The notes under the pieces: model-generated
Databases searched by the model: none
What the model saw: the letters and a program-made list of their open reading frames with translations, nothing else
Told to the model about the DNA's origin: nothing
Source of the DNA: a virus
Lineage: Duplodnaviria > Heunggongvirae > Uroviricota > Caudoviricetes
IMG/VR virus record: IMGVR_UViG_2695420732_000030
Span: 1-18,236 of that record
Direction: 5' to 3' (one strand)
DNA: 18,236 nt
Translations under genes and position numbers: made by a program
Part shown: piece by piece, positions 1,237 through 14,968 of the stretch
Numbering within the stretch: the stretch's first letter is position 1
Layout: each line of letters begins with the position of its first letter

Positions 1237-1237
1237 A

Positions 1238-1453
1238 TCATGAGTCTTTGATAAACTGATTTATCTTTGGATAGTTGTACCAGATAATCCCTCGTTTGCT
1301 GTCTGGCTTACCTAAAGGAGATACTCGTTTGAAGTGGAAGCCCTCCACCCAACAGTTCTGGCGGTATGCTTCAATTTGTCTGGCCCCCAGACCAGTGCGA
1401 AGCATCAGGCCGTATTCAACCATCCACTCTTCATTAAAGATTACTTGTGCCAT
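1238..1453 (-). CDS. xisR: Excisionase-like protein (YdaQ/XisR-like), 71 aa
   Basis: Track ORF 1238..1477 trimmed to the internal ATG at 1453, which has a GAGGTGA Shine-Dalgarno 5 nt upstream; product [23 protein letters not shown]... sits immediately upstream of int in the same operon. Confidence 0.72.
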
Positions 1454-1552
1454 CGCATCACCTCTGGCAGGCGCCAATGTTAGACTGAAATTGACGCCCG
1501 ATGTTGATTATTAATAATCAGCTATGAAGTTTTAATTTGAATACAATGCAAT

Positions 1553-1741
1553 TCACGAGGACTGAAGTTTCTCGCAATTAAAATTTATCAGTTTTACTTT
1601 CTGCTCTCTGGAAACGCCTGCTTCTTTTTTACCTGAGAGCATTTTTTCGCATTCTGATTTCGTTAGTTTAGATTTTGAATATCTTGTCCAGTTAGTAGGA
1701 GTGCCACCTTCCTTTTCAATAGTGGCGGTAATTTTATACAT
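1553..1741 (-). CDS. ydaC: Small phage protein, YdaC-like (DUF1187-like), 62 aa from the SD-supported start
   Basis: Track ORF 1553..1813; the internal ATG at 1741 has a perfect GGAGG SD at 5-nt spacing and avoids an 80-nt overlap with ralR. The upstream ATG at 1813 has no SD. Position between xis and ralR as in Rac. Confidence 0.55.
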   Translation of the reverse strand: MYKITATIEKEGGTPTNWTRYSKSKLTKSECEKMLSGKKEAGVSREQKVKLINFNCEKLQSS

Positions 1742-1928
1742 GAACACCTCCGTTATTATTTCCAGTGGTTCGTTTATTCCATCTTTCGAGTGCTTCTTTT
1801 TCACTTCCACCATAACCGGTTCGGGATTCGCATCCGTTACACTTCGCTCGGTAATATCCTGAAATGACTTTCACCGTTACTGATGGACAACCACAAAATG
1901 GACATGGTTTAACATTGTCATATCTCAT
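1734..1928 (-). CDS. ralR: Restriction alleviation protein Lar/RalR, 64 aa
   Basis: Translation MRYDNVKPCPFCGCPSVTVK...RAKCNGCESRTGYGGSEKEALERWNKRTTGNNNGGVHV with CPFCGC/CNGC zinc motif, as recalled for Rac RalR; track ORF trimmed to the ATG at 1928. Confidence 0.8.
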   Translation of the reverse strand: MRYDNVKPCPFCGCPSVTVKVISGYYRAKCNGCESRTGYGGSEKEALERWNKRTTGNNNGGVHV

Positions 1929-1984
1929 AATTTTTCTCATAAAAAATATTTCAAGTTGGCGGTGCATTACACCGCCAGGCTGAA

Positions 1985-2794
1985 TTATTCCTCTGAATTA
2001 TCGATTACACTGTATTCCCCGGTTAATACAGAGGAATCTGCAGGATCGATTGTCAGTGGTTCCTTTTCATCCATTGATACTGCACGCTGGATCTCAATTG
2101 ATACGGGCAGATATTTGAACAGGCGACGAATAGCCGTTTTCTTTGCCATTTCTTCCCAGTGAGTTACCCACGGCCCGTTATTACCAGCTTTACTCAGGCT
2201 GCGCACCAGCTCAATCTGTTTGCGCGTCATAACTTCAAACTGAGTACCTCCGTCTTTCAGTCTTGCGACAGCATAGACGTGGGTAACCGGGGCATCTTCG
2301 TTTTCTCCCGGGCGGTGTATTAACTTTTCATCAAGGCCAAATTCGAAGCTAAACTCGTCACCTTCACGGACAACACGGGCTGACAGGCTGGCGATTTGAC
2401 CAGAACGGCGAGCCAGATCAATCATGCCGCGATAGCCAATGATTAGCTGAACGTTCTTTTTACCGCTCTTTTCGTTTTTATTACCAAAAGGCAGTAAATA
2501 TGCATGACCGAGGGCGCTACCTGGCTCAAGTCCGAGCTGTGAACACTGTACGATCGCACTGACAAAACTCATAGTGTCACAGTTTCCTAACGCCGGAACT
2601 TTACTAATTTCTGTGGTGGCGATACGGATCATACGTTCAGCCGTCATATGGCGTGGAAGAGCTGCTGCCAGTTGCTCTTTCATTGCCGGGCTGTTAATCA
2701 CGCACAGCACATCCTTATCGTTAACTGCTGCTGGTGCACGGTTTCCCTGAGTTTTTTGCAGATCGGCTTTTGCGATAGGTGGTTGCTTAATCAT
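1985..2794 (-). CDS. recT: RecT single-strand annealing recombinase, 269 aa
   Basis: Protein from [24 protein letters not shown]... matches RecT as recalled; ATG at 2794 has an AAGGAG SD 8 nt upstream; the start overlaps the recE stop by 8 nt (ATGATTAA), as known for recE-recT. Confidence 0.92.
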
Positions 2795-5459
2795 TTGCAT
2801 ACTCCTTAGCCCAGCGGGGCAGTGATAACGTCTTAATAGCTGGCCATTCATCGGTATTTAGGCAGTCAGCCAGGGTCCGCAGATTGCGGTGATATTCCTG
2901 CTGGCCTGCCAGTTTTGCTTCTTCGCCCATCATGAAAATCTCAACCGGATAACGTCCGCATTCAACAGTTGTGCTGGCAACCAGAAAAACGAAAGTTGGC
3001 TGCACGCCAAACTGTGCTTCATAACCGTCACTGTAGAATGCATCCTGAACGTGATAGCGGTAGTCGTAATAAGCCGTTTTGAATCGTTGAATATCCGCTG
3101 TGGTTTTCACGTCCATGATCCAGTGAAATTCAGGAATAATTTTGTCCGGACGGCACCGACACAAAATTCCTGTTTCCGGATCTTCCCAGTAAATTGATGA
3201 TTCAGCGTGTCCGGCGCTTTCAACAAGCCATTGCCCCAGCGGCAAAGCCATAACGCTTTGATACATGAGTTCAATTTTCCGGCCTTCTTCCGCAGTGATA
3301 ACCGTTTTTCCTGTGCTTGCGCATTCCATCAGAAACGCTTTCTCTTCTTCTTTTCCGGCGGTTGTACGGCGGTTAAATTCAGGTGCTACGATAAAGCGGT
3401 TACTGAATTCTTCCGGTTCAAGTACCCGGCAGTGGAAAGCGGTTCCTAAATCGAGCGTTTTTGTCTTTGTAGTGTCCACGGGGGCATTTTTACGCCACAA
3501 ATACAGTGCCGGAGTATCAGCAATGTCATCGAGCTGAGACTTACTGACACCGGGACCCGCGTGGTAATTCTCATTCGAAATTCCGTAATAAATACCTGGC
3601 TCTATGTCTTCTACGATTACGGGATCTGCGACTTCGCCAGTTTCATCACTGCAATCGCGATGCGGATCGCTGCCAGCATTCTCATTGTGCGGATGTTCAG
3701 CGCCTTCCATTTCCTCCGGATCTTTTTCCTTAGCTTCAACCTGATTCTCTTCACCGAATGTTTCCTGGTATGTTGCGTCGCCCATCACCGCGCCACAATC
3801 AGGGCAGTTGCCGCCACCGCTCTGACCGCAGGCGGTGCAGACTTTTTCCGGTTCCTGTTGCGCTACTGGTTCGGATTGTTTCGTTTCTGGCTCGTTTTGT
3901 AACGCATTTGGGCTGTTTTGTTCCGCTTTTTGGTCGTTCCGTTCCGATTCATGCTGGTTCTGGTTCACAGAATCGCGAGTCTGGATCCCCTTGACCCATT
4001 TCGGATCATTAGGGTCGCTAATCCCCTCAACAAATTCACCACGCGATACAGCAAGTAACTTATCGGCGTCAGGCTGGCTGATATTGGCTGCCTGCATAAT
4101 TTTGTTTACTTCGTCAGCGGTGACTTTTACTTGGTTAGCGGAACTCACCTGCGACTGAGCATCCAGCGACTGCGCGTTCTGGCCATGTTCAGTTGTATCC
4201 GGTTCCATTGTTTCAGTTGTTGCCTGTTCACCTGCCATTGCGTCAGATGGTTGTGGTTTTTCTTCTTCTGTTTCACGCTCAGTAACCACCTCGCGGTTAA
4301 TTTCTTCCAGGATATCTTTTTCCGGTGTATGCCGGGCAGCTGTGAGAGTTTCCTTGCTGGGGTTCTCGTGATCAGTTTCCGTCAAATAGGCGTTGATATA
4401 CCCCTGAAGGCGTCCCGGGTAGTGATAAAATTCAGGGTGTGCGCTTCGGATAAGTGCAAAAATAGCGGCGCGGGAATAGTCCAGAATACCCGGGGTTGCA
4501 CGAAGTGCTGCGGACCATTCTTTGAACGGACTTTCTTTGTTCAGGACTACTTCTTTTGCGCGACGATAAACGCTGCCCGGAATTTCATAAATATTAAAAT
4601 CCATCGGAAGTGTGGCTGCTGCAATCTCCACATCCAGTGTGTCGAGGGTGTGTACTAAATTCGGATTGCGATCGGTTTTGTTCCCACCGCCAGCATTAGC
4701 ACCGGAAGCCGTGCGGGTGATGCGTGAAACACGATTTCCTTTCATCCACTCTTTTGTCAGCAGACCCCGATAAGTGTAGTCAGCGTCCAGGTATGCTTCG
4801 AAAAAAGCAGTTATTAGTCCCAGGTCTGAATTACCAGGATTAGGGAAAACTTTGTCAGTGTCACGAACCAGTTTGTGGAGGTCGCGAATCTCCAGCGAGT
4901 CGAGCAGACTGGTTTTATGCGAAATAGCCAGGGCAGTAACAGCCGGTAGTTCTTCAGCCCGTGCAATGTGTAATGCCTGGAGTTCGTCGCGTGAAACGTG
5001 CGTTACTGGTTTTTCGCTGCCGTGTTGAGCAAGCCAACGAATGGGCAGTTCCTGACCGGAGACAGGCAGAAGCATGCTCTCCTCAATCTCAGTCATGTCT
5101 TCGCCGTTGATGTTGGTATTGTCAGTGCTGGCTGGTTTATCCTGAACAGAGGGTGACGGGGCGATAAATACCATTGTGATGCCATCCTCCCCGCCTTTTT
5201 CGTATCGGTTGCAGAATTCCGTATCAAATACGCCTTCTGGTGGGAGGTCATCAACAACGGGCAAATTGACGCGAACAGGTTTTTTAAAGTCATCTTCATC
5301 GTAGCCAGCATCGTCAATCGCAACAGCACCACGGGAGATGGCAATGGATAATTTTTTCGCTTCAGCCCAGTAAAAACCGCCTTTAATACCGAGACGTTTT
5401 CTTACTTTGTCATTTTTGGCTTCGTAATACAGTGGGAAAACTTGTTTATCGGTGCTCAT
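2787..5459 (-). CDS. recE: Exodeoxyribonuclease VIII (RecE), 890 aa variant
   Basis: C-terminal ~280 aa ([24 protein letters not shown]...[12 protein letters not shown]...) resemble the RecE PD-(D/E)XK nuclease domain; N-terminal and central acidic linker as recalled for RecE but divergent and longer than the K-12 form (recalled as 866 aa); ATG at 5459. Confidence 0.9.
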
Positions 5460-5527
5460 TGTTTTTTAACCTCAACTCAGATTAAAATTATTGCGAGTGA
5501 TGAATAAATGTCCCGGGTTCTTGACTC

Positions 5528-5555
5528 AGGCCTGCGCTGAGTGCAGGCCTTTTTC
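5528..5555 (+). terminator. GC-rich hairpin (AGGCCTGC-N7-GCAGGCCT) followed by TTTTT on the plus strand, between racC and recE
   Basis: Perfect 8-bp stem at 5528-5535/5543-5550 and T-run 5551-5554. The U-tract is on the plus strand only, so it would terminate transcription antisense to the recET operon. Confidence 0.3.
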
Positions 5556-5559
5556 CCAT

Positions 5560-5835
5560 TCAGATTTCGCCTTTTTGTTCCATCTCAATCAGAGTTGCCA
5601 TAATCCTGTCTTTTTTCTCTGCTGGAATATTCTTTATGATGTGCACCATGCACATTTTTTTTACACCTTCGTGAAGTGTTTTAACGTTGCCTGATGGACC
5701 GTCGATATCAACCACGGTGAATGGGGTTTCTTTATTTTCTGTTTTAATCACGTAGCCAATGAGTTTTCCTTCCAGGATAACTTCGTGAACAACGTCATCA
5801 GTAGTAACAACAGTGGCTTCATAACTGGTAATCAT
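5560..5835 (-). CDS. racC: RacC-like protein, 91 aa
   Basis: Translation from MITSYEATVVTTDD... matches RacC as recalled; track ORF trimmed to ATG at 5835 with an AAGGAG SD at 6-nt spacing. Confidence 0.8.
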   Translation of the reverse strand: MITSYEATVVTTDDVVHEVILEGKLIGYVIKTENKETPFTVVDIDGPSGNVKTLHEGVKKMCMVHIIKNIPAEKKDRIMATLIEMEQKGEI

Positions 5836-5909
5836 GTTTTTCTCCTTAATTAAGGTTGAGCGAATCCCTGCCATTGCTGGCATAAATTCAGTTTCGGATA
5901 GTCAGTTAA

Positions 5910-6080
5910 TTAAAGTTCGTGTGCCATCTGGTCTTTTTCGGCACAGATTTCACTACAATATTTTTTCATTTCCGTCGTTGGTATAACTCCACGCATGAAA
6001 TGAAGTGGTCTTGTAATGATTTTGCTTTCTTCAATTTCTTTATTGCAAAGGTGATAAGCACATTTTATTTTCTTAGTCAT
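5910..6080 (-). CDS. ydaE: YdaE-like small Cys-rich (zinc-binding) protein, 56 aa; not in the ORF track
   Basis: Hand translation of the minus strand from ATG 6080: [56 protein letters not shown]. The ATG overlaps the kilR stop (TAATG). Position between racC and kilR as in Rac. Confidence 0.65.
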   Translation of the reverse strand: MTKKIKCAYHLCNKEIEESKIITRPLHFMRGVIPTTEMKKYCSEICAEKDQMAHEL

Positions 6081-6301
6081 TACCATGACTCCGCCTTTAC
6101 AGGTAAACCATCACGACCGAGGAAGACTCTAATCATGCAGTCAGAAATGCATGTTTTTGTAGTCAGGCTACGAATATAAAGTTTTCGCTTTTTAATATTG
6201 TTTGCCGAGGCGATATATGTCCGACCTTCATGAAGAACATAATCGCCAGGAGTCACACACTGACGTGGTATTTCATCAGTTCCGAAGTGATGAGCAATCA
6301 T
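6080..6301 (-). CDS. kilR: KilR, FtsZ-targeting cell-division inhibitor of Rac, 73 aa
   Basis: Translation [46 protein letters not shown]... matches KilR as recalled; ATG at 6301 has a GGAG SD 7 nt upstream; track ORF trimmed by 4 codons. Confidence 0.8.
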
Positions 6302-6465
6302 AATTATCTCCATTTTTACAAATGAATTTTGTCGATGCGGTGCCTGGTGCCTCCAGGTGACGTTAACCAGTTAACAATTAACGCCGGATAATCCACCCAT
6401 AACACTGATGCTTTTAACTGTGCCGCGTGCGCTTAGCCGCATTCACCGCATCACAAAATTCACTT

Positions 6466-6512
6466 TAAAAAGGCGGACATCAGTCGAACTTCAAGAAAAA
6501 ACTGATGCCGCC
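6466..6512 (-). terminator. Candidate intrinsic terminator on the minus strand (12-bp interrupted stem, then UUUUUAAAG)
   Basis: GGCGGaCATCAGT (6472-6484) pairs with ACTGATGCCGCC (6501-6512) around a 16-nt loop; on the minus strand the T-run corresponds to A 6467-6471. Lies ~180 nt downstream of the minus ORF ending at 6692 and upstream of kilR. Confidence 0.35.
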
Positions 6513-6691
6513 AAGACTACACACAGCAGTGTTGTTAGTCACAACCGGAGGCGCACTCCCACCATTTAAATTTAACAGACAAGACCGACTCTTTATGGAT
6601 ATCGGAAATGCGCCTTCGTGTTGTGCCCGGTTTTATTTCACCACCTCCGGGCTTCGGTGGTTTTCGTTATTCCCCAACAGCGAAAATTAGG

Positions 6692-7042
6692 TTAATCTGA
6701 ATATCCCCCAACAGATGGAAGGATTTTTCTATGCTCGAAAATCAGACCTTGAAGGTTGCCTGCCCTGATTGCGGCAGTGAGATGCTCAAGCGGCCCGATG
6801 ATTTTGACTTTGACACTAATTTCGTTGGCGTTAGTTGTGCCGAATGTGGTCGAGAAATCACTAAGGACGATGTTATTAAGCAAGGAAAAAATGTAGTTCA
6901 GAAACAAGTCAATGACATGCTCCGGAACACCCTCAAAGGCAGCGGGTGGAAGTTTAAATAACCCATGTATCGCACTAAAGTGTTCCGTTACTTCTGTAGC
7001 GTCTATGGTAAGTTTGATAGGCGCTATTTTCACTCCCGTCAT
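6692..7042 (-). CDS. Hypothetical protein, 116 aa, at the position where K-12 Rac carries sieB; fully antisense-overlaps the plus ORF 6731..6961
   Basis: ATG at 7042 with GAGGTGA SD 5-6 nt upstream; near-consensus sigma70 promoter ~70 nt upstream on the same strand (7119-7147); candidate terminator downstream (6466-6512). No recognisable family. Confidence 0.42.
   Translation of the reverse strand: MTGVKIAPIKLTIDATEVTEHFSAIHGLFKLPPAAFEGVPEHVIDLFLNYIFSLLNNIVLSDFSTTFGTTNANEISVKVKIIGPLEHLTAAIRAGNLQGLIFEHRKILPSVGGYSD
6731..6961 (+). CDS. Hypothetical zinc-ribbon protein, 76 aa (CPDCG-x22-CAECG)
   Basis: ATG at 6731 with AAGGA SD; two CxxC pairs 22 residues apart; about 70% purine at codon position 1. 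Lies entirely inside the antisense ORF 6692..7042, so one of the two may be a shadow frame. Confidence 0.45.
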   Translation: MLENQTLKVACPDCGSEMLKRPDDFDFDTNFVGVSCAECGREITKDDVIKQGKNVVQKQVNDMLRNTLKGSGWKFK

Positions 7043-7118
7043 ACATCACCTCAAATCTTTTCCCTTAACGCCGGGTGGCGGAACTAAAACCTACAGCGCC
7101 GTGCTGTTCTCGATAGAA

Positions 7119-7147
7119 ATATTAGTGACACGTATATTTTAAGTCAA
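7119..7147 (-). promoter_or_regulatory. Near-consensus sigma70 promoter on the minus strand: -35 TTGACT, 17-bp spacer, -10 TAATAT (PL-like position)
   Basis: Reverse complement of 7119-7147 reads TTGACT-N17-TAATAT; sits between the repressor-gene terminator and the 116-aa minus ORF, pointing toward the kilR-recET-int operon. Confidence 0.5.
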
Positions 7148-7243
7148 CAGCAAGGCGTATTATATTTTTGATTTTGTAACTATGTAAATGTTTTTCAAGG
7201 GAAAAATATTAGTTATACAGCTGATTTGCAGAAGTTATGGCAC

Positions 7244-7277
7244 AAAAAAAACCGACTAAGACGTCGGTTTTTTTTTG
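7244..7277. terminator. Bidirectional intrinsic terminator (A8-CCGAC-loop-GTCGG-T9)
   Basis: AAAAAAAACCGACtaagacGTCGGTTTTTTTTT; 25 nt downstream of the repressor stop (7303) on the minus strand and downstream of the 6731..6961 plus ORF. Confidence 0.7.
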
Positions 7278-7302
7278 TTGTGGGTGGGGTAGTGAGCGGT
7301 GG

Positions 7303-7764
7303 CTACTGGTTACGTTTCTTTAGTGCCAGCATGTTCTCGAAGGCTTCCTCGTAGAGCTTGTTTAGTCCACGTAGCTGGTTAAGGAGTTTGGCTTTTTCTG
7401 ACGCAGGTAGAATCTCGAAGAGGTTAAGTAACTCTGCCTGTTCTTCATTGACCAGCCTCCATCCTTTGCCTGAAAAGCTATCATCATAAGTATCTGATGA
7501 TCTTACATAATTCATTAAGTCTTTAAGGTCTTCTCGAATGTCCTCTGGTTTTACCTTTAACAGAGCCGCAAATTTTAGCGCAGCGTCGGTATTTACCGGT
7601 ATCTTGCCGTTCAGATACTGGCTAACGGTGCCTTGAGATTCGAATCCCAACAACTCAGCCGCCAACTCTTGAGTCAGCTTCAGCTCTTTTTTTCTTGCAT
7701 TCCATGCGGCTTTTAAATTCTTGCTCGCTTCTGGAGTTGCAATCACTTCGCGTGTTTTTTTCAT
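7303..7764 (-). CDS. Prophage repressor, HTH XRE/cI-type (RacR-like), 153 aa, no S24 peptidase domain
   Basis: HTH motif LTQELAAELLGFESQGTVSQYLNGK; divergently transcribed from a Cro-like gene; the acidic/helical C-terminal half lacks the Ser-Lys autocleavage module. Confidence 0.8.
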   Translation of the reverse strand: MKKTREVIATPEASKNLKAAWNARKKELKLTQELAAELLGFESQGTVSQYLNGKIPVNTDAALKFAALLKVKPEDIREDLKDLMNYVRSSDTYDDSFSGKGWRLVNEEQAELLNLFEILPASEKAKLLNQLRGLNKLYEEAFENMLALKKRNQ

Positions 7765-7800
7765 ACATAGAGTTTATTTGTTTTACCAATATTATCAAAG

Positions 7801-7841
7801 ATAGTCTGACTATTGATCTTTAAAATTAGTAGGGCTAATAT
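7801..7841 (+). promoter_or_regulatory. PR-like promoter (-35 TTGATC 7813-7818, 17-bp spacer, -10 TAATAT 7836-7841) overlapped by the perfect palindrome ATAGTCTGACTAT (7801-7813), a candidate operator
   Basis: Read directly from the sequence in the 107-bp divergent intergenic region between the repressor and Cro-like genes. Confidence 0.5.
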
Positions 7842-7871
7842 TTGCTCGAGGCATAACGTAGAAGGTTGGCT

Positions 7872-8147
7872 ATGAACTTAAGAGACTATTTAAAAGAGAA
7901 ACATATCACCCAGCTACAGTTTGGGAAGCTAACGGGTTTATCTCAGGTGCATGTAAGTCGAGTGCTGGGGGGCTATGAAAGATTCAGCCCTGAAAAAGCA
8001 TTACGTGTTGCTGAAGTAACGAATTTCGAGGTTACACCTCATGAACTCCGGCCTGATATCTACCCGAATCCAACCGACGGTTTACCTGTTGGATGTAAGG
8101 CTAACACACAAAATACACAGGAGTTGATTCATGAAAATCAGGCATGA
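7872..8147 (+). CDS. Cro/YdaS-like HTH DNA-binding protein, 91 aa
   Basis: HTH ITQLQFGKLTGLSQVHVSRVLGG; ATG at 7872 with AAGG SD (track start 7866 is a TTG); first gene rightward of the repressor; its stop overlaps the next gene's start (ATGA). Confidence 0.7.
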   Translation: MNLRDYLKEKHITQLQFGKLTGLSQVHVSRVLGGYERFSPEKALRVAEVTNFEVTPHELRPDIYPNPTDGLPVGCKANTQNTQELIHENQA

Positions 8148-8553
8148 GCACATCGAATCGGTGCTGTTAGCCCTGGCAGCTGAAAAAGGGCAGGCATGGG
8201 TAGCCAGTGCAATTACTGAAGAATATCTGCGCCAGGGAGGCGGCGAATTGCCCCTGGTACCAGGCAAGGACTGGAATAATCAGCAGAACATCTATCACCG
8301 TTGGTTAAAAGGTGAAACGAAAGCGCAAAGGGAAAAAATTCAGAAACTGATCCCTGCGGTTCTGGCAATTCTTCCGCGCGAGCTGCGTCACCGACTCTGC
8401 ATCTTCGATACCCTGGAACGCCGTGCATTACTGGCGGCGCAGGAAGCGTTGAGTACGGCAATTGATGCGCATGATGATGCAGTCCAGGCCGTTTACCGGA
8501 AAGCACATTTCAGCGGTGGTGGGTCGCCCGGCGATTCTGTCGTAGTGCATTGA
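8131..8553 (+). CDS. ydaT: YdaT-like protein (toxic when derepressed in Rac), 140 aa
   Basis: 140 aa starting MKIRHEHIESVLLALAAEKGQ..., same length and position as Rac YdaT as recalled; AGGAG SD at 7-nt spacing. Confidence 0.65.
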   Translation: MKIRHEHIESVLLALAAEKGQAWVASAITEEYLRQGGGELPLVPGKDWNNQQNIYHRWLKGETKAQREKIQKLIPAVLAILPRELRHRLCIFDTLERRALLAAQEALSTAIDAHDDAVQAVYRKAHFSGGGSPGDSVVVH

Positions 8554-8597
8554 TTGAAATTAATCGTGCCGGATTGTTTTGTTCGGTATCAGTTAAA

Positions 8598-8618
8598 TGT
8601 AACGCTGCGAGCGTTACA
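8598..8618. repeat. Palindrome TGTAACGCT-GCG-AGCGTTACA, copy 1 of 3, 13 nt upstream of the O-like gene start
   Basis: Perfect inverted repeat read directly; the same half-site TGTAACGC/GCGTTACA recurs at 8790-8810 and 8998-9016. Confidence 0.6.
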
Positions 8619-8630
8619 AGGTGAAAACAA

Positions 8631-9425
8631 ATGGCTTCAAACTGGATAAAGCTCGAGGTTATTACGCCGGATAAGCCGGAAATATTCAGGCTTGCTGAGA
8701 TTCTGAATATTGATCCAGATGCCGCATTAGGGAAGGTTATTCGCTTCTGGGCATGGGCGGATCAACAAATGATAGACGGTAATGCAGATTGTAACGCTCG
8801 CGGCGTTACAAAAAGTGCAATAGATCGCATCACTTTTATGGCTGGTTTTGCTGATGCGTTAATTCAGGTTGGATGGCTGGTCGAAAATGACGGTGGGCTT
8901 TCTCTACCTAACTTTGAACGTCATAACGGGAAAAGCTCTAAAAAACGGGCGGTTACAAACGAGCGAGTTACAAAAATACGCGAACTGAAACGAAAAGGTA
9001 ACGCTGGCAGCGTTACACAAACGGATCAAAAAGCGTTACCAGAGGAAGAGGAAGAGGAAGAGGAAGATATAAATACTGATCTCCCCCTAAATCCCCCTCG
9101 CCAAAAACGAGCGTCTAAAAAATTCGAGCCGGAGGCTATCGAGCTACCTGACTGGTTGCCGGAAACACTCTGGCATGAGTGGGTTCAGTTCAGGCAGGCA
9201 TTGCGAAAACCGATTCGAACGGAGCAGGGCGCTAACGGGGCGATACGGGAACTGGAAAAATTCCGTCAGCAGGGTTTTACACCTGAGCAGGTGATTCGAC
9301 ACAGCATCGCCAATGAATACCAGGGCTTGTTCGTACCGAAAGGTGTTCGGCATGAGACGTTGCTCCGACAGGTTAACACCGTCTCGTTGCCGGACAGTGC
9401 GATCCCGCCAGGCTTCAGGGGGTAA
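8631..9425 (+). CDS. ydaU: Replication initiation O-like / YdaU-like protein (DUF1376-like), 264 aa, with internal poly-Glu
   Basis: Position immediately upstream of the DnaC-like gene; AAGGTGA SD; palindromic repeats embedded in the coding sequence, as for ori within lambda O; the (GAGGAA)4 tract at 9042-9065 encodes the poly-Glu run. Confidence 0.7.
   Translation: MASNWIKLEVITPDKPEIFRLAEILNIDPDAALGKVIRFWAWADQQMIDGNADCNARGVTKSAIDRITFMAGFADALIQVGWLVENDGGLSLPNFERHNGKSSKKRAVTNERVTKIRELKRKGNAGSVTQTDQKALPEEEEEEEEDINTDLPLNPPRQKRASKKFEPEAIELPDWLPETLWHEWVQFRQALRKPIRTEQGANGAIRELEKFRQQGFTPEQVIRHSIANEYQGLFVPKGVRHETLLRQVNTVSLPDSAIPPGFRG
8790..8810. repeat. Palindrome TGTAACGC-TCGCG-GCGTTACA, copy 2, inside the O-like CDS
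   Basis: Perfect 8-bp arms with a 5-bp spacer; direct GTTACAAA repeats follow at 8952-8959 and 8967-8974. Confidence 0.6.
8998..9016. repeat. Palindrome GTAACGC-TGGCA-GCGTTAC, copy 3, inside the O-like CDS; extra half-site GCGTTAC at 9033-9039
   Basis: Read directly; same half-site as copies 1 and 2, at ~200-bp spacing. Confidence 0.55.
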
Positions 9426-9431
9426 CAGACC

Positions 9432-10172
9432 ATGAAAAATATTGCGACAGGCGGCGTTCTGGAGCGTATCCGCAGACTGACCCCACCACATGTAACCGCC
9501 CCATTCAGAACGGTTGCGGAGTGGCGTGAGTGGCAACTTACTGAAGGCCAGAAACGTTGCGAGGAGATCAACCGTCTGAATCGTCAGTTGCGGGTGGAAA
9601 AAATTCTGAATCGCTCTGGCATCCAGCCGTTGCACCGTAAATGCTCGTTTGCGAATTACCAGGTGCAGAACGACGGCCAGCGATACGCGTTAAGCCAGGC
9701 GAAATCCATCGCCGATGAACTGATGACCGGGTATACAAATTTTGCGTTCAGCGGAAAACCTGGTACCGGGAAGAATCACTTAGCGGCAGCTATCGGGAAT
9801 CGCCTGTTGAAAGACGGTCAGACAGTGATTGTGGTTACCGTGGCTGATGTTATGAGCGCCCTGCACGCCAGCTATGACGACGGGCAGTCAGGCGAAAAAT
9901 TTTTGCGTGAACTGTGCGAAGTGGACCTCCTGGTTCTTGACGAAATTGGCATCCAGCGTGAGACGAAAAACGAGCAGGTGGTACTGCACCAGATTGTTGA
10001 CCGCCGGACGGCATCACTGCGCAGTGTCGGGATGCTGACAAACCTGAATCATGCCGCAATGAGCACGCTTCTTGGTGAGAGGATTATGGACCGGATGACC
10101 ATGAACGGTGGTCGTTGGGTGAATTTTAACTGGGAGAGCTGGCGGTCAAACGTTGGACGTCAGGGTATGTGA
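9432..10172 (+). CDS. ydaV: DnaC/IstB-like AAA+ helicase loader (YdaV-like replication protein P analogue), 246 aa
   Basis: Walker A GKPGTGKNHLAAAIG and Walker B DLLVLDEIG; start 7 nt after the O-like stop. Confidence 0.85.
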   Translation: MKNIATGGVLERIRRLTPPHVTAPFRTVAEWREWQLTEGQKRCEEINRLNRQLRVEKILNRSGIQPLHRKCSFANYQVQNDGQRYALSQAKSIADELMTGYTNFAFSGKPGTGKNHLAAAIGNRLLKDGQTVIVVTVADVMSALHASYDDGQSGEKFLRELCEVDLLVLDEIGIQRETKNEQVVLHQIVDRRTASLRSVGMLTNLNHAAMSTLLGERIMDRMTMNGGRWVNFNWESWRSNVGRQGM

Positions 10173-10197
10173 GAATTTTTAACGAGGTGAATTTTCG

Positions 10198-10968
10198 ATG
10201 GAAACCGTATTACATGCACTGAAAGCGATGGGAAAAGCCAATTCTGTTGAACTGGCGGCACGAATTGATATCAGCCGTGAAGAAGTTATCAACGAACTGT
10301 GGGAGCTCAAAAAAAATGGCGTTGTTGATAAAACGGGTCACACCTGGTTTCTGGCTGTCGAAGGTGAATCCCGGGTAACCGAAGAGCGGCCAGTAAAATC
10401 TGAAACACAGGATATGCTGACCGAAGAGGTCGCTCCAAAAGTTAGCGCTAACATGATGATTGAGTTTATCGCTCAGGAGGGGGCTAAAACCTGTGAAGAA
10501 ATAGCGGGTAAGTTCGGTGTCAGTACTCGCAAGGTTGCTTCCACGCTGGCGGTGGTAACCGCAACGGGGCGGCTGGCACGCGTTAATCAGAACGGTAGAT
10601 TTCGTTACTGCATGCCGGGCGATAATTTACCAGCAGAGCCGAAAGCCGCGCTGGTAACGGAAAGTGATGGTAAGGCCTTTCCTCAGCCAGCAGGTGCTGC
10701 GTTACCAGTCCGGGAAGCCGCAACACAGGAAGAAATTAAAACAGAAACTGTGGCGGACATTGTGCAGCCGTTGCCATCGTTTACCGAAACGCAAGCAGAT
10801 GAGCTGATTTTTCCGTCCCTTCGCAGGGCAAACCTGGCGCTGCGCAGGGCGAAAAGTGATGTTCAGAAGTGGGAGCGAGTCTGCGCCGCGCTGCGGGAGC
10901 TGAACAAGCACCGGGATATTGTTCGGCAGATTGTCGATTCATCCGGTCGTATTGTGTCGGAAAAGTGA
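10198..10968 (+). CDS. Hypothetical phage protein (YdaW/DUF1627-like), 256 aa
   Basis: GAGGTGA SD 7 nt upstream of ATG; position after the DnaC-like gene as in Rac; family assignment is by recollection only. Confidence 0.6.
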   Translation: METVLHALKAMGKANSVELAARIDISREEVINELWELKKNGVVDKTGHTWFLAVEGESRVTEERPVKSETQDMLTEEVAPKVSANMMIEFIAQEGAKTCEEIAGKFGVSTRKVASTLAVVTATGRLARVNQNGRFRYCMPGDNLPAEPKAALVTESDGKAFPQPAGAALPVREAATQEEIKTETVADIVQPLPSFTETQADELIFPSLRRANLALRRAKSDVQKWERVCAALRELNKHRDIVRQIVDSSGRIVSEK

Positions 10969-10983
10969 TTGCCGGAGGCGCTT

Positions 10984-11376
10984 ATGGCAAAAGTATTTAC
11001 ACCAGAAGAGCGGGAAGAAGTGAGGGCGCGCATTGTGGAATTCGTGCGCCTGAGCGGACGAGAAACTTTTCGACAACTGGCAGATAAAACGGGTGTCAGT
11101 AAGACCGCTATTCGTCGTTTATCTGGTGCGCTTGCGGCCAGTGGTGATGTCTGGCTCTCTGGTTGCGGGGTATTTCTATCAGAGCAGGCGTATCGCGTAT
11201 GGCGTAAGACACCGGAGAAGGCTGCTGACCCGACACTGATTCGAAAGTTACCTGACGGAGAAATACGTCGTTACAACAGACGGCAGAACATAATTTGTCG
11301 TGAGTGCCGCCAGAGCGAAGTTATGCAGCGTGTGCTGGCGTTCTATCGGGGTAATTTTCAGGAGGTGATGGAGTGA
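10984..11376 (+). CDS. Hypothetical protein, 130 aa, with CRECRQ motif
   Basis: ATG at 10984 with GGAGG SD at 5-nt spacing (track start 10969 is a TTG); stop overlaps the next start (GTGA). Confidence 0.6.
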   Translation: MAKVFTPEEREEVRARIVEFVRLSGRETFRQLADKTGVSKTAIRRLSGALAASGDVWLSGCGVFLSEQAYRVWRKTPEKAADPTLIRKLPDGEIRRYNRRQNIICRECRQSEVMQRVLAFYRGNFQEVME

Positions 11377-11669
11377 GGGTGAGGGTTTATATCGCCGGTC
11401 CGATGACCGGGTATAAAAATTTCAACCGTGAGGCGTTCCACAAGGCGGAAGAGGAACTGAAACGGGAAGGGCATACAGTCTTAAACCCGGCAGTACTTCC
11501 GGACGGGCTGACACAGCCGCACTACATGGATATTTGCATGGCAATGATTCGTTGCGTGGATGCGATTTACATGCTGAATGGCTGGCAGCGGTCAGCGGGC
11601 GCTAAGGCAGAGCTGGCACTGGCGGAGAAACTGGGACATACGGTGATTTATCAGGAGGTGGCTCAATGA
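11373..11669 (+). CDS. DUF4406 / nucleoside 2-deoxyribosyltransferase-like small protein, 98 aa
   Basis: N-terminal VYIAGPMTG motif typical of this fold; GTG start with GGAGG SD at 7 nt; stop overlaps the next ATG (ATGA). Confidence 0.6.
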   Translation: MRVRVYIAGPMTGYKNFNREAFHKAEEELKREGHTVLNPAVLPDGLTQPHYMDICMAMIRCVDAIYMLNGWQRSAGAKAELALAEKLGHTVIYQEVAQ

Positions 11670-12385
11670 GAGAGGTTAACTATGAGGCGCTTCGTGAAGC
11701 AGCAGAGAAAGCAACTAAAGGATGCTACATCGTAGGGCATACATCGGGCAATCAGCATGGGAATATAACAGGAGTTTTTGTTTGTCAAAAATGGAAAGGA
11801 GAACCCGGTGGCGTAATTGCAGAATGTCATGTTAACTGCCTGGTTGAAACAGATGCTCAGGCTTACGCAAACGCTGAATTTATTGCTGCCTTTAATCCAA
11901 ATGTTGCGCTGGCACTACTGGATGAACGGGAAAGAAACCAGCAATACATCAAATCACGCGACCAGGAGAACGAGGAGATTGCGCTTACGGAAGGGAAGCT
12001 GCTAATCGAAAACGGCCGGCTTGTTGCCGATACGCTACGCCACTTAGCTGATAACGAAATCGACTCTGATTATTTTGCTATCACCTCAACGAATGAGAAC
12101 GGTACTGAAATTGATCATGAGATGGCTATTACCGATTACGCACTGCAAGCTGCCGGAACTGTAGACGAATTGGTTGCGGCGTTGGAATCCGCAGAGAAGC
12201 GCATTGCAGAACTGGAAGCACGGGAAATATCGCTCCCAGAACGTAGCAGCATGCTTCATCGAACAGATTTTCACGATGATTACCAAACGGTAATGGCATA
12301 CAAAGTTTCTGAAGTCATCGCTGCAATCCGCGCCGCTGGCATTCGCATCAAAGGAGAGGAGCATGGAAATAAAACCAGAAGATGA
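11666..12385 (+). CDS. Hypothetical phage protein, 239 aa (possibly Ea22-like, acidic coiled-coil C-terminus)
   Basis: ATG overlapping the upstream stop; no motif confidently recognised. Confidence 0.6.
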   Translation: MREVNYEALREAAEKATKGCYIVGHTSGNQHGNITGVFVCQKWKGEPGGVIAECHVNCLVETDAQAYANAEFIAAFNPNVALALLDERERNQQYIKSRDQENEEIALTEGKLLIENGRLVADTLRHLADNEIDSDYFAITSTNENGTEIDHEMAITDYALQAAGTVDELVAALESAEKRIAELEAREISLPERSSMLHRTDFHDDYQTVMAYKVSEVIAAIRAAGIRIKGEEHGNKTRR

Positions 12386-12719
12386 GTTAAGCAATATCGT
12401 TTTATTTCCGGTAAAAGAGGATGACCCACGTAATCAGGTTAATTTTCTCTATGAGCCATCGGAAAGACCATATTGCCATCACGCCTCTGTCCGGGTTGAC
12501 GAAAAAGAGCGTCAGGTCCGCTGTAAAATCTGCGGTGCAGTTGTGGAGCCATTTGACTGGATGCTCTCTGTGGCGAAAAGAGAAACCAGACTGGCAGATG
12601 ATGTAAGGATCTTGCGCCAGGAGGAACGGGAAAGGCGGAGAAATATAGAAAAGCTAATTCAGATTGAGCGTAACGTGAAAGCGCGGATACGCAGGGTGAC
12701 AAAATCCAGAACTGAATAA
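12363..12719 (+). CDS. Hypothetical protein, 118 aa, with CHH...CKIC cluster and Arg-rich coiled-coil tail
   Basis: ATG at 12363 with AGGAGAGGAG SD; overlaps the upstream gene by 23 nt. Confidence 0.55.
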   Translation: MEIKPEDELSNIVLFPVKEDDPRNQVNFLYEPSERPYCHHASVRVDEKERQVRCKICGAVVEPFDWMLSVAKRETRLADDVRILRQEERERRRNIEKLIQIERNVKARIRRVTKSRTE

Positions 12720-12767
12720 TTAAATTTAGCTCTGTTAAAAATTTAATCCTTAACCGGAGGTATATCA

Positions 12768-12980
12768 ATGTCAAACGCACAGAAAGTTATTAACGCTGAA
12801 AAATATAACGAGTGGGTGAAAAAGTTCTCAGAGCAGATTTTTAAAATTACTGGCGACGAGAATGCGGCAAAAAATGAATTAGAGCCGTGGACACCTGAAG
12901 GTGTCGACCCAAATTATTGCTGGTGGGATGTTGATCCAGTTGATGCTGCAAATGAAGCTATGAGTTATCACAACGATTAA
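12768..12980 (+). CDS. Hypothetical small acidic protein, 70 aa
   Basis: GGAGG SD 8 nt upstream of ATG 12768. Confidence 0.55.
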   Translation: MSNAQKVINAEKYNEWVKKFSEQIFKITGDENAAKNELEPWTPEGVDPNYCWWDVDPVDAANEAMSYHND

Positions 12981-13180
12981 TGTCAGGAGGCCGCCCGAAA
13001 GGGCGGTAATGAAAAGTGACTGAATTAACCAAAGAGAAATTAATCGAAGAAGCCAAATTAAAAATAGCGATTGCGAAATGCTACCCCAATTCAGGGATGG
13101 CACGGGTATAGGGCGAGTTATTCAAAATTGCACTGGCATAGCTGGAAGCAGATCCAGTTAAACGAGTTAACTCAGATCAG

Positions 13181-13894
13181 ATGCACCGAGTCTGCTTAGA
13201 AGCTAATCGCTATTTAGATAAATATGACGCGATGGCGAAAGAGGTAAATAAGTTGCTTGGACGCATCGCCCCGCCAGCGCCAGTATTTAACGGCGAATAC
13301 GGTGACGCATATCAGGGCGCTCGTGAAGACCTGTCCATCTGGAAACGGCGAGCGCTTGAAGCTGATGAGCACGTTCGGCGACTGGAGCAAATCAATGACC
13401 ACATGGTGAAAGAGGCGCAGGGAGAATCACGCATGGGCGAGCCTGTAATACGTGAGCCAGCACCGGTAGTGCCTGAAGAAGCAACTCCGGAAAACGTAGA
13501 AATGCTCTCTGGCTATGTTTCAACGTACAAATTAACCGATAGCGAGCGCGATATTGCTGCCGAAATATGGAACGCCTGCCGCGCCGCCATGCTTCAGGCT
13601 GGAAACTTTCGGGAAAATAAGGGTTCGTCAACCAATAATTTTCGGGAAATCTCGGAAACGTCAACCAACTATCCGGTAACTCCGGATGGTTGGATAAGCT
13701 GTAGTGAGCGAATGCCGGATGATGGTCAGCACGTAATTATTTTATGTGATGGCGCATTCGTTCTTTATGCGCAATATCGAGACGGTGAGTTTTTTGATGT
13801 AGTCCGTAATGGTGATGAATTTTTCGAAACACAGAGCCGCAATGTAACCGACTGGATGCCGCTACCAGAACCGCCGCAGGAGGTGCGCCAATGA
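13181..13894 (+). CDS. Phage protein with C-terminal DUF551-like domain, 237 aa
   Basis: C-terminus WISCSERMPDDGQHVIIL...VTDWMPLPEPP resembles the DUF551 signature as recalled; weak SD. Confidence 0.6.
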   Translation: MHRVCLEANRYLDKYDAMAKEVNKLLGRIAPPAPVFNGEYGDAYQGAREDLSIWKRRALEADEHVRRLEQINDHMVKEAQGESRMGEPVIREPAPVVPEEATPENVEMLSGYVSTYKLTDSERDIAAEIWNACRAAMLQAGNFRENKGSSTNNFREISETSTNYPVTPDGWISCSERMPDDGQHVIILCDGAFVLYAQYRDGEFFDVVRNGDEFFETQSRNVTDWMPLPEPPQEVRQ

Positions 13895-13974
13895 TCTGGC
13901 CTGAAGCCTTTGCAATTACAGGCGTTGCTATAGCTATTGATTTTTTAGTATATGTTATTTGTCGGTGGGGGTAA
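13891..13974 (+). CDS. Tiny hydrophobic peptide, 27 aa (MIWPEAFAITGVAIAIDFLVYVICRWG), candidate membrane peptide; not in ORF track
   Basis: GGAGG SD 7 nt upstream; ATG overlaps the upstream stop (ATGA), suggesting translational coupling; single hydrophobic helix. Confidence 0.4.
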   Translation: MIWPEAFAITGVAIAIDFLVYVICRWG

Positions 13975-14009
13975 AAACGTTCGCCGGGATTCACACCAAA
14001 GGAGGGAAT

Positions 14010-14114
14010 ATGTCGGATGATATTTCACTGGCAATGGAAGGTGCGCTGGCTGTTATTGCTGTTGTGGGCGTTTACTGCCTGGTTGTGTTTTTGATGGATC
14101 GACTAGGGAACTGA
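14010..14114 (+). CDS. Tiny hydrophobic peptide, 34 aa (MSDDISLAMEGALAVIAVVGVYCLVVFLMDRLGN); not in ORF track
   Basis: GGAGGG SD 4 nt upstream of ATG 14010; single predicted transmembrane helix. Confidence 0.4.
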   Translation: MSDDISLAMEGALAVIAVVGVYCLVVFLMDRLGN

Positions 14115-14122
14115 ATTCATTA

Positions 14123-14144
14123 CGATATGGGAATTCCCATATCG
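14123..14144. repeat. Perfect 22-bp palindrome CGATATGGGAATTCCCATATCG
   Basis: Exact two-fold symmetry centred on GAATTC, 9 nt after the second small-peptide stop and upstream of the putative hok promoter. Confidence 0.6.
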
Positions 14145-14156
14145 GGTAAAAACGGT

Positions 14157-14184
14157 TTGCGGTAAAGCGAGAGTTAAGTAGAAT
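14157..14184 (+). promoter_or_regulatory. Candidate hok mRNA promoter (-35 TTGCGG, 16-bp spacer, -10 TAGAAT)
   Basis: Places the TSS near 14191, giving a ~420-nt transcript ending at the 14584-14610 terminator. The 5' end GGGTGCTTGAGG (14191-14202) is complementary to 14566-14577 near the 3' end, as in hok fold-back mRNAs. Confidence 0.35.
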
Positions 14185-14359
14185 TGCTGCGGGTGCTTGA
14201 GGCTATCTGTCTCGGGCATGAACACCAACGGCAGATAGAGAAAAGCCCCAGTTAACATTACGCGTCCGGCAAGACGCTTAACATTAATCTGAGGCCATAT
14301 CTATGCTCTACATACGTAGGTTAGCCTCTTACGTGCCGAAAGGCAAGGAGAAGCAGGCT

Positions 14360-14515
14360 ATGAAGCAGCAAAAGGCGATGCTAATCGCCCTGATCGTCAT
14401 CTGTTTAACCGTCATTGTGACGGCACTGGTAACGAGGAAAGACCTCTGCGAGGTACGAATCCGAACCGGCCAGACGGAGGTCACTGTCTTCACAGCTTAC
14501 GAACCTGAGGAGTAA
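14360..14515 (+). CDS. Hok/Gef-family type I toxin, 51 aa
   Basis: MKQQKAMLIALIVICLTVIVTALVTRKDLCEVRIRTGQTEVTVFTAYEPEE shows the Hok signature (TM helix, RKxLCE, AYE); AAGGAG SD; track ORF 14303..14515 trimmed to ATG 14360. Confidence 0.8.
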   Translation: MKQQKAMLIALIVICLTVIVTALVTRKDLCEVRIRTGQTEVTVFTAYEPEE

Positions 14516-14583
14516 GAGACCAGGCGAGGGAGAAATCCCTCGCCACCTCTCATGTGTCAGGCATCTTCAACGCACCCGCACTT

Positions 14584-14610
14584 AACCCGCTTCGGCGGGT
14601 TTTTGTTTTT
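14584..14610 (+). terminator. Intrinsic terminator after hok (AACCCGC-TTCG-GCGGGTT then TTTTGTTTTT)
   Basis: GC stem with TTCG tetraloop and T-run, read directly. Confidence 0.75.
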
Positions 14611-14735
14611 ATTTTCAATACGTTTGAAGTTATGGACGATGCCGGAATAGAATCAAAAATACTTAAGTAGCGCGCAGGGAGAAGAGGGATGGACCCCGAA
14701 CAGGGGGGTGCTATTTATCTGGAAGGATTCTGTTG

Positions 14736-14909
14736 ATGAAAATTGAAGAATTACGTGAAATTTTTAGTGAAAATGGCCTCTTTGCTGTGCGCGTTGAGAA
14801 TGGGGAAGTTATCTACGCAACGTTAATCCCTGATAATCATGTAATTTTATCTATCGAGGCATTCATTGAATATCTTGAAAGGCTCGGTTTCAAGGTGATT
14901 CGGGAATGA
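14736..14909 (+). CDS. Hypothetical small protein, 57 aa (MKIEELREIFSENGLFAVRVENGEVIYATLIPDNHVILSIEAFIEYLERLGFKVIRE); not in ORF track
   Basis: GGAAGGA SD 8 nt upstream of ATG 14736; hand-translated. Confidence 0.4.
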   Translation: MKIEELREIFSENGLFAVRVENGEVIYATLIPDNHVILSIEAFIEYLERLGFKVIRE

Positions 14910-14968
14910 GTTATAATTCGTAAGCCAGCCTGAACAACTGGCAACCTACAGCGCCATTGGAGACAGCA

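Follow-up and report, generated by a model that had tools for sequence, protein, structure and literature searches.

The stretch of DNA analysed here, called the window below, covers the 18,236 bp of positions 1 to 18,236 of the IMG/VR virus record IMGVR_UViG_2695420732_000030 and, judged by its sequence, is a Rac-like lambdoid prophage of Escherichia coli or Shigella. Its plus strand carries a gene of 264 amino acids (aa) at 8631-9425, assigned below to a family of phage replication initiators. In and just upstream of this gene stand three copies of one palindrome, accompanied by lone copies of its half-site and followed by an all-purine tract. A previous reading of the same letters (the original prediction) had pointed to three palindromes with identical half-sites as a candidate origin or set of initiator-binding sites.

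Searching the whole window for GTAACGCNNNNNGCGTTAC, that is GTAACGC-N5-GCGTTAC, returned copies without any mismatch at 8599-8617, 8791-8809 and 8998-9016, just as predicted, and no further match in the 18,236 bp even when up to 2 mismatches were allowed. Three copies compare with 0.07 expected from 200 shuffles, of which 0/200 reached that number, hence the local enrichment that had been put forward as a check is borne out. The arms are 8 nt long in the first two copies (TGTAACGC/GCGTTACA, 8598-8618 and 8790-8810) and 7 nt long in the third (GGTAACGC...GCGTTACA), and the intervals between neighbouring copies measure 192 and 207 bp. Of the half-site GCGTTAC the window has 10 copies where 1.75 would be expected; 7 of the 10 fall within 8599-9039, a segment that also holds 9 of the window's 49 occurrences of GTTAC. 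The first palindrome, site U (TGTAACGC-tgcga-GCGTTACA, 8598-8618), is non-coding and lies in the 77-nt gap between the end of a ydaT-like open reading frame (ORF) at 8553 and the initiator ATG at 8631, 13 nt 5' of that ATG and abutting the Shine-Dalgarno sequence AAGGTG. Site A (TGTAACGC-tcgcg-GCGTTACA, 8790-8810) lies within the initiator gene and site B (GTAACGC-tggca-GCGTTAC, 8997-9017) in its linker-coding part; like site U, neither is assigned to a strand. Both are read in the same frame, as CNARGVT (aa 54-60) and GNAGSVT (aa 123-129) respectively, which is the recurrent 'VT' motif already noticed in the protein.

Lone half-sites on the plus strand complete the arrangement (signed offsets below refer to the initiator gene). 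A degenerate direct one, GTAATG (8779-8784), stands 12 nt 5' of the left arm of site A; its counterpart in sister lineages is a perfect GTAACG at +148, and a T/C difference at position 8783 gives the perfect GTAACG at 8779-8784 in 12 of 32 close relatives. Further on, a direct repeat of period 14 with 2.2 copies (8943-8974, Tandem Repeats Finder) contains GGTTAC (8951-8956) and AGTTAC (8966-8971). The direct repeats proposed at 8952-8974 are thus present, but the half-sites at 8951-8971 are imperfect. AGTTAC corresponds to a perfect CGTTAC at +335 in five relatives (L045, L047, L049, L050 and L099); GGTTAC lies over a conserved RALTN peptide and may be coding sequence only. The lone half-site proposed at 9033-9039 is a true GCGTTAC, and directly 3' of it comes a plus-strand all-purine tract of 27 nt, (AGAGGA)4.5, at 9041-9067, which encodes EEEEEEEE and is followed by TATAAATA. 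The core in the window is hence made up of the half-sites at 8951-8956 and 8966-8971, site B, the trailing half-site at 9033-9039 and the purine run at 9041-9067.

No Pfam model, Phage_rep_O included, matched the 264-aa initiator, which on the other hand aligns with PHROG 2509 'replication initiation protein' at an expect value (E) of 1e-91. The gene had been called 'O-like' in the original prediction; its position and the similarity of its C-terminal half, the only half that matches, to the O-like PHROG family 678 agree with that name, but no similarity of the protein to lambda O could be detected (BLASTP E > 2). In an AlphaFold2 model computed from an alignment of 25 homologues, the N-domain (aa ~11-96) has a winged-helix fold and is confidently predicted with four helices and a beta-hairpin, aa 97-162 form a disordered linker and the C-domain (aa 163-264 with its tail) has a confident three-helix part at aa 163-240. 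The fold search with the N-domain gave generic winged-helix matches only and no match to a specific Rep protein. When the family profile was compared with E. coli DnaT, the C-domain aligned with residues 76-179, a weak match of E ~1e-3, and the terminal peptide ...VNTVSxPDSxIPPGFRG is almost identical in the two proteins. Computation hence gives a winged-helix N-domain and a DnaT-like C-domain, and the latter suggests that the phage initiator may mimic DnaT in engaging the helicase-loading machinery. In the window the C-terminal peptide RQVNTVSLPDSAIPPGFRG (9366-9425, aa 246-264) nearly equals the C-terminal tail of E. coli DnaT, and a weak NCBIfam DnaT match falls on the same residues.

Site A encodes a low-confidence loop of the winged-helix domain (aa 49-60), and site B, the trailing half-site and the tract together correspond to aa 107-146, within the disordered linker, so that the cis elements occupy the stretches of the protein that are under the least constraint. 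The initiator form most common in E. coli is longer, with 376 aa (protein P0012, from a cluster of 429 member sequences), and equals the window protein plus an in-frame linker insertion of ~114 aa just 3' of the purine tract (window 9083-9116, between aa 151 and 163). This insert bears a PD-(D/E)xK-like 'GRIDIVV...GIELD' motif, and its sole Pfam match is weak (REase_MTES_1575, E 0.23).

The distribution of the sites among relatives was then compared with that of the protein. By tblastn the initiator is modular: its N-domain (aa 1-137) was matched in 84 phage records, from phages of Escherichia, Klebsiella, Xanthomonas, Ralstonia, Pseudomonas, Vibrio and Salmonella (epsilon15), and the C-domain recurs in Gifsy-1-type 'O' proteins. 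The N-domain family comprises 6,463 clusters at 50% identity (E <= 1e-3). From an N-domain profile search 80 viral and 80 genomic loci were taken and reduced to 56 non-redundant representatives; the genomic loci come from Enterobacterales, Pseudomonas, Burkholderiales, Planctomycetota, Verrucomicrobiota and metagenome-assembled genomes labelled Akkermansia, Thermoanaerobaculia and Ignavibacteriae, and the N-domains of the loci are 43% to 99% identical to that of the window. Two palindromes per gene are found in nearly every locus, at +148, +151 or +160 (site A) and at +346 to +391 (site B), with A-B distances of 198-237 bp. The 56 representatives gave 50 matches at site A and 50 at site B, and palindromes with up to 2 mismatches number 108 between -60 and +480 (30.2 kb) against 1 in 166.6 kb of flanks. 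At each site the core TAACG/CGTTA is kept in 47-50 of the 50 copies, and the five bases of the spacer are unconstrained apart from a preference for T...A at its outer positions. Only the enterobacterial clade has a counterpart of site U, at -32 to -44, and additional direct half-sites often accompany it.

Around site B the layout across lineages consists of 0-3 direct GTAACG copies at a 12-nt period, the palindrome, a trailing half-site 5-17 nt 3' of it and an abutting polypurine tract. The third site is the conserved core. The original prediction had described palindromes about 200 bp apart and not tightly clustered; the spacing is indeed conserved, but at the third site relatives have 3-6 half-sites closely packed, and the trailing half-site and the tract come after these. 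A reverse test was made with the first 120 viral-contig stretches, unsorted, that bear an exact palindrome. An N-domain homologue is encoded in 100 of the 120, and 165 of their 187 motif instances stand at U, A or B positions; several stretches of the remainder are truncated at contig ends. The palindrome is essentially diagnostic of the initiator family. In the IMG/VR contig L366, positions 700-1230 hold nine GTAACG/CGTTAC half-sites, one perfect palindrome included; an ORF is called only at the 3' end of this stretch and no N-domain homologue was detected there. This may be the same recognition sequence in an intergenic origin whose initiator is encoded elsewhere. Furthermore, a 52-kb circular E. 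coli 'plasmid' without replicon type (CP088505.1, L251), the sole match in the plasmid collection, carries at 5990-6760 a family initiator whose gene has palindromes at +148 and +357 and a Mu-like transposase as neighbour. This record probably represents an episomal phage, which may rely on the module; it is suggestive of autonomous replication and not evidence for it.

An adjacent AT-rich unwinding element had been named as something to look for. A tract does abut the trailing half-site at 9041-9067, although it is purine-rich rather than strongly AT-rich, with about 48% G+C, an AT skew of 0.5-0.6 and TATAAATA directly after it. The purine/pyrimidine asymmetry between the strands, surveyed over 2.2 kb, peaks at +360 to +450 in 49 of the 56 representatives, and in 31 of the 56, mostly from high-GC hosts, the same region has the lowest-GC 30-mer. 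Most lineages have a (GAGAA)n tract (CGTTACCTAGAGAAGAGAAGAGAAGA) encoding REEKRRE, whereas the enterobacterial clade has (GAGGAA)n encoding EEEEEEEE; the peptide thus differs between lineages while the purine tract is kept. The junction CGTTACC(T/A)AGAG is retained in nearly all lineages, and the variant lineages have their own half-site at the trailing place (GCGTGACCAGAG, GCGCAACCAGAG and GCGGACCAGAG). The tract at 9041-9067 is a candidate unwinding or R-loop element. Within E. coli the number of GAGGAA hexamers is polymorphic, with 1-3 units missing in most of the 32 unique close relatives, so that both the acidic run of the protein and the length of the tract vary.

Selection on the palindrome was examined at the nucleotide level in a codon alignment of 47 canonical lineages, using third-position entropy. 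At site A the third positions are nearly frozen (Gly50 GGT 0.15, Asn51 AAC 0.15, xGC 0.0 and Val59 GTT 0.15 bit), whereas other fourfold-degenerate sites reach 1.5-2.0 bits and the codons of other invariant Gly and Val residues in the same domain 1.7-1.9 bits. Site B is read in frame 1, xGT-AAC-GCx (GNAxSVT), in 40 lineages and in frame 0, GTA-ACG-Cxx (VTxxAL), in 9. The 32 unique close relatives from E. coli differ from one another in the spacers but share the same arms. Taken together, the frozen synonymous sites, the use of two frames at site B, the non-coding position of site U and the varying spacers indicate that the palindrome is selected as nucleotide sequence, and this holds across phyla.

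Non-canonical lineages have a palindrome of their own at the same places, and the variant is shared by the direct repeats and the trailing half-site. One class has GTCACGC/GCGTGAC (L115, L147, L156, L157, L169, L170 and L206), another GTTGCGC/GCGCAAC (L116, with nine GCGCAA copies), and a third GTCCGC/GCGGAC (Klebsiella phage BUCT711 and Salmonella phage epsilon15, at +65 and +344/353). The peptide encoded by site A varies with the class (GNAxSVT, GHAPxVT, GCAPSAT) and the dyad symmetry is retained. A change of N-domain lineage is thus accompanied by a joint change of the half-site at every site, and the palindrome travels with the N-domain in module swaps. The gene 3' of the initiator, in contrast, differs among lineages, being of lambda-P type, of DnaC type, a DnaB helicase, DUF1064, DUF3268 or RuvC in those compared (L003, L126, L156, L005, L162, L113, L153, L002, L049 and L250), while N-domain and origin signature stay the same, a pattern that shows the helicase-recruitment half of the module shuffling freely. 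Since this downstream gene varies, and since the module is also swapped in YdaU of E. coli K-12 (below), no protein element but the N-domain accompanies the sites in every case.

The neighbourhood of the initiator is that of a Rac-type prophage. The nearest complete genomes are 97% identical over 7200-10300 and annotate, in order, intR, xisR, recT, recE, kilR, a DicA-like repressor, YdaS, YdaT, a 'hypothetical protein', ydaV and a DUF1627 protein; by annotation context in these genomes YdaS is Cro-like and YdaT CII-like, and the 'hypothetical protein' is the ORF 8631-9425. The following plus-strand gene (9432-10172), labelled ydaV in the closest E. coli genomes, encodes a DnaC-like helicase loader (IstB_IS21 5e-19; NCBIfam PRK12377 2e-151 and DnaC 6e-91), which presumably partners the C-domain of the initiator. 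A cluster of transfer RNA (tRNA) genes, Met-CAT, Arg-TCG and Arg-TCT, occupies 16549-16800, in the late part of the prophage; an O157:H7 relative annotates Ile/Arg/Arg at this position.

Considering these results, we give a probability of roughly 65% to the reading that the palindromes are dimer-binding sites of the prophage's own initiator, read by its winged-helix N-domain, and that together with the half-sites and the tract they would form a replication origin inside the initiator gene. Nucleotide-level selection, specificity to the family, concerted change and linkage to the N-domain all support the origin or initiator-binding candidate of the original prediction. From these we infer the identity of the binder, the opening of the DNA at the purine tract, helicase loading and any autoregulation, in a scheme of the following kind. 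Transcription of the early rightward operon would yield the initiator, which would bind site B, the neighbouring half-sites at 8951-9039 and the distal sites A and U, as dimers on the palindromes and possibly as monomers on the lone half-sites. The nucleoprotein complex at site B could then destabilise the purine tract at 9041-9067 and the AT-rich 9068-9078, and the DnaT-like C-domain would place host DnaB, with the DnaC-like YdaV as its carrier, on the DNA so opened. Finally, site U, just 5' of the ribosome-binding site, may let the initiator limit its own expression, and may be the autoregulatory site offered as an alternative in the original prediction. A bolder extension would make the junction of half-site and polypurine tract a new origin-opening element, in which a purine-rich early transcript or H-DNA-type structure leads to a stable R-loop or single-stranded bubble beside the bound initiator and the C-domain loads DnaB-DnaC directly; this would be a PriA-independent, sequence-targeted version of the restart primosome, serving as a phage origin in hosts that range from Proteobacteria to Planctomycetota although its recognition sequence hardly varies. 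We consider this extension rather unlikely.

An origin within the gene of its initiator is a classical principle, best compared here with lambda ori, where four dyad-symmetric O-binding iterons of 18-19 bp at gene offsets +348 to +432 are followed by a purine-rich A+T tract, ACAAAAGAAAAAAGAAAAGA, in the linker-coding part of O (PMC5043065). In both systems the proposed or known origin lies in the segment encoding the linker between the DNA-binding and the loader-recruiting domain, the sites are ~19-bp dyads with an uncontacted centre, and a purine-rich tract, in the window a candidate for low stability, follows directly 3' (PMC5043065). In both, the loader gene follows the initiator gene in an early rightward operon, after cro-like and cII-like genes. 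However, the two initiators are unrelated, and the window origin would be analogous and not homologous to lambda ori. Moreover, the lambda iterons are contiguous and spaced ~20-24 bp, while the palindromes of the window are ~200 bp apart and its relatives add lone direct half-sites with a 12-nt period; lambda has a 40-bp A+T-rich block where the window family has a (GAGGAA)n/(GAGAA)n polypurine candidate; the C-domain here is DnaT-like; and lambdoid iterons are phage-specific whereas the half-site of this family is conserved across phyla.

The Rac prophage has been reported to carry an active origin, oriJ (PMC3945230). Rac of K-12 is the same prophage type with the same slot (racR/ydaS/ydaT, initiator, ydaV) and a homologous YdaV, and the C-domain of its YdaU is 79% identical to that of the window initiator over 124 aa, the only part that aligns. 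In contrast, YdaU has a DUF1376 N-domain, and its gene has five direct ACAGATGTTCAA-like repeats and no GTAACGC palindromes; with another N-domain and other repeats, the window would hold a different origin-specificity module. The oriJ literature of K-12 deals with that other N-domain type, and the sites of the window are not described there. The ACAGATGTTCAA-like repeats of K-12 ydaU (L167, NC_000913.3, 4261-4563) lie in the region equivalent to site B and are candidate oriJ iterons for the DUF1376-type N-domain. The initiators of epsilon15 and of E. coli phage TL-2011b ('primosomal protein I' or 'replication initiation protein'; PHROGs 2509, 9474 and 3926) have a homologous N-domain (MAxxWIK...PNFERHNG), two in-gene palindromes, direct half-sites, a trailing half-site and a polypurine tract. 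They differ in that epsilon15 has GTCCGC-N7-GCGGAC at +65 and +344 with another C-terminal region, and in TL-2011b the loader that goes with the N-domain is of lambda-P type. The records of epsilon15, TL-2011b and 'phage Rac' contain no annotated origin.

Iteron plasmids offer a further parallel. Their dimers may act at inverted and their monomers at direct repeats, with autoregulation. The Rep proteins of such plasmids (pPS10 RepA, F RepE, R6K pi) are winged-helix initiators that recognise direct and inverted repeats of one sequence, as proposed here; however, the sites of the window family lie inside coding sequence, the direct half-sites have a period of 12 nt in relatives and are degenerate in the window, against ~22 bp in plasmid iterons, and the window system has neither a Rep sequence or specific fold match nor DnaA boxes nor helical phasing; iterons are reviewed in PMC5043065. 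As for E. coli DnaT, its likeness to the initiator is confined to the weak C-domain and terminal-peptide alignment described above. DnaT works in PriA-dependent restart and not at a sequence-defined origin and is not known to have an origin-binding winged-helix domain.

Several other explanations of the palindromes were weighed. They could be a by-product of the GNAxSVT peptide repeat, or chance, without a function as nucleic acid; two of the three copies do encode the same peptide pattern in the same frame. Yet site U is non-coding, 9 lineages read site B in the other frame, the synonymous positions are frozen, lineages with a variant half-site alter the peptide to GHAPxVT or GCAPSAT and keep the dyad, and chance predicts 0.07 copies, so that this explanation is effectively refuted. 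Alternatively, they could act as hairpins in the early messenger RNA, in stability, processing or translational control, rather than as sites in double-stranded DNA. Each is predicted to form a hairpin of 9-10 bp (-12.6 to -16.3 kcal/mol; z-scores between -2.0 and -3.8), the first of them beside the ribosome-binding site. However, the arm sequence itself is invariant and not just complementary, departures from symmetry are mostly non-wobble (51 'other' against 2 G-U cells on the plus strand, sites A and B summed), which argues against selection for an RNA hairpin, and the direct and trailing half-sites, unable to form hairpins, co-vary with the palindromes; Rfam gave no meaningful match. We hold this explanation to be quite improbable. 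Terminator or promoter function was rejected, as counts were at or below shuffle expectation; the single terminator call, against 2.3 expected, lies at site B on the minus strand, which is not transcribed.

The binder could also be a protein other than the initiator, namely a host factor or the Cro-like, CII-like or repressor protein of the window. A universal host factor could explain why one half-site is kept across very distant hosts. But these hosts belong to at least four phyla, variant half-sites follow the initiator lineage and not the host, and the neighbouring genes differ among lineages. The repressor/cro intergenic region (7765-7865) contains no half-site and no DnaA boxes were found within 1 kb. 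With no other gene consistently linked to the sites, the other dimeric protein entertained by the original prediction is improbable. Known host transcription-factor sites were considered and rejected (the TyrR box TGTAAA-N6-TTTACA, GntR, LacI-type operators): spacing and sequence do not fit, and the host range speaks against them. The sole rival still serious is that the sites are operators through which the initiator regulates only its own gene, by a transcriptional roadblock or translational occlusion, with the origin elsewhere. Winged-helix Rep dimers of iteron plasmids repress their own gene at inverted repeats, and here the Shine-Dalgarno sequence directly adjoins site U, none of the sites falls outside the transcription unit and the core of the window has few of them. 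Nevertheless, site U is confined to the enterobacterial clade whereas site A, site B and the trailing half-site plus purine tract are universal, a pure operator leaves the polypurine junction and the direct half-site arrays unexplained, and the replication module of the window has no other repeat cluster by pattern search and Tandem Repeats Finder. Autoregulation alone is hence unlikely; as an added function it is compatible with an origin in the initiator gene.

Some observations weigh against that origin. The window core, with one palindrome, one perfect and two imperfect lone half-sites, has fewer and more dispersed sites than the four contiguous iterons of lambda. At 48% G+C the tract is not the window's lowest-GC 30-mer near the gene, which lies at -58, intergenic and near site U, and the tract could partly result from selection for a charged, disordered linker. 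The A-B distance has no helical phasing (Rayleigh R about 0.2, unique distances), the predicted recognition helix GFADALIQ is hydrophobic, and comparison by eye of the four half-site classes revealed no residue-to-base specificity code in the recognition helix or wing. A half-site nearly invariant across phyla is unusual for initiator-origin pairs; lambdoid pairs of O and iterons diverge quickly. The searchable literature gave no binding or replication data for any member of the family, and under the motif strings, oriJ/YdaU and epsilon15 origins it contained no description of the sites of the window.

The analysis provides a testable candidate origin for a very common class of Rac-like prophages of E. 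coli and Shigella, and likewise for epsilon15-like, TL-2011b-like, Xanthomonas CP2-like and Pseudomonas phages, whose initiator is now annotated as a 'hypothetical protein' and has no Pfam model despite an N-domain family of more than 6,000 clusters. With its two palindromes, trailing half-site and polypurine tract, the DNA signature could allow origins to be annotated automatically and specificity classes to be defined. Furthermore, the natural half-sites GTAACG, GTCACG, GTTGCG and GTCCGC offer a system for the evolution of initiator-origin specificity in which the site lies inside the gene of its reader, and the DnaT-like C-domain would tie phage initiation to the restart primosome of the host.

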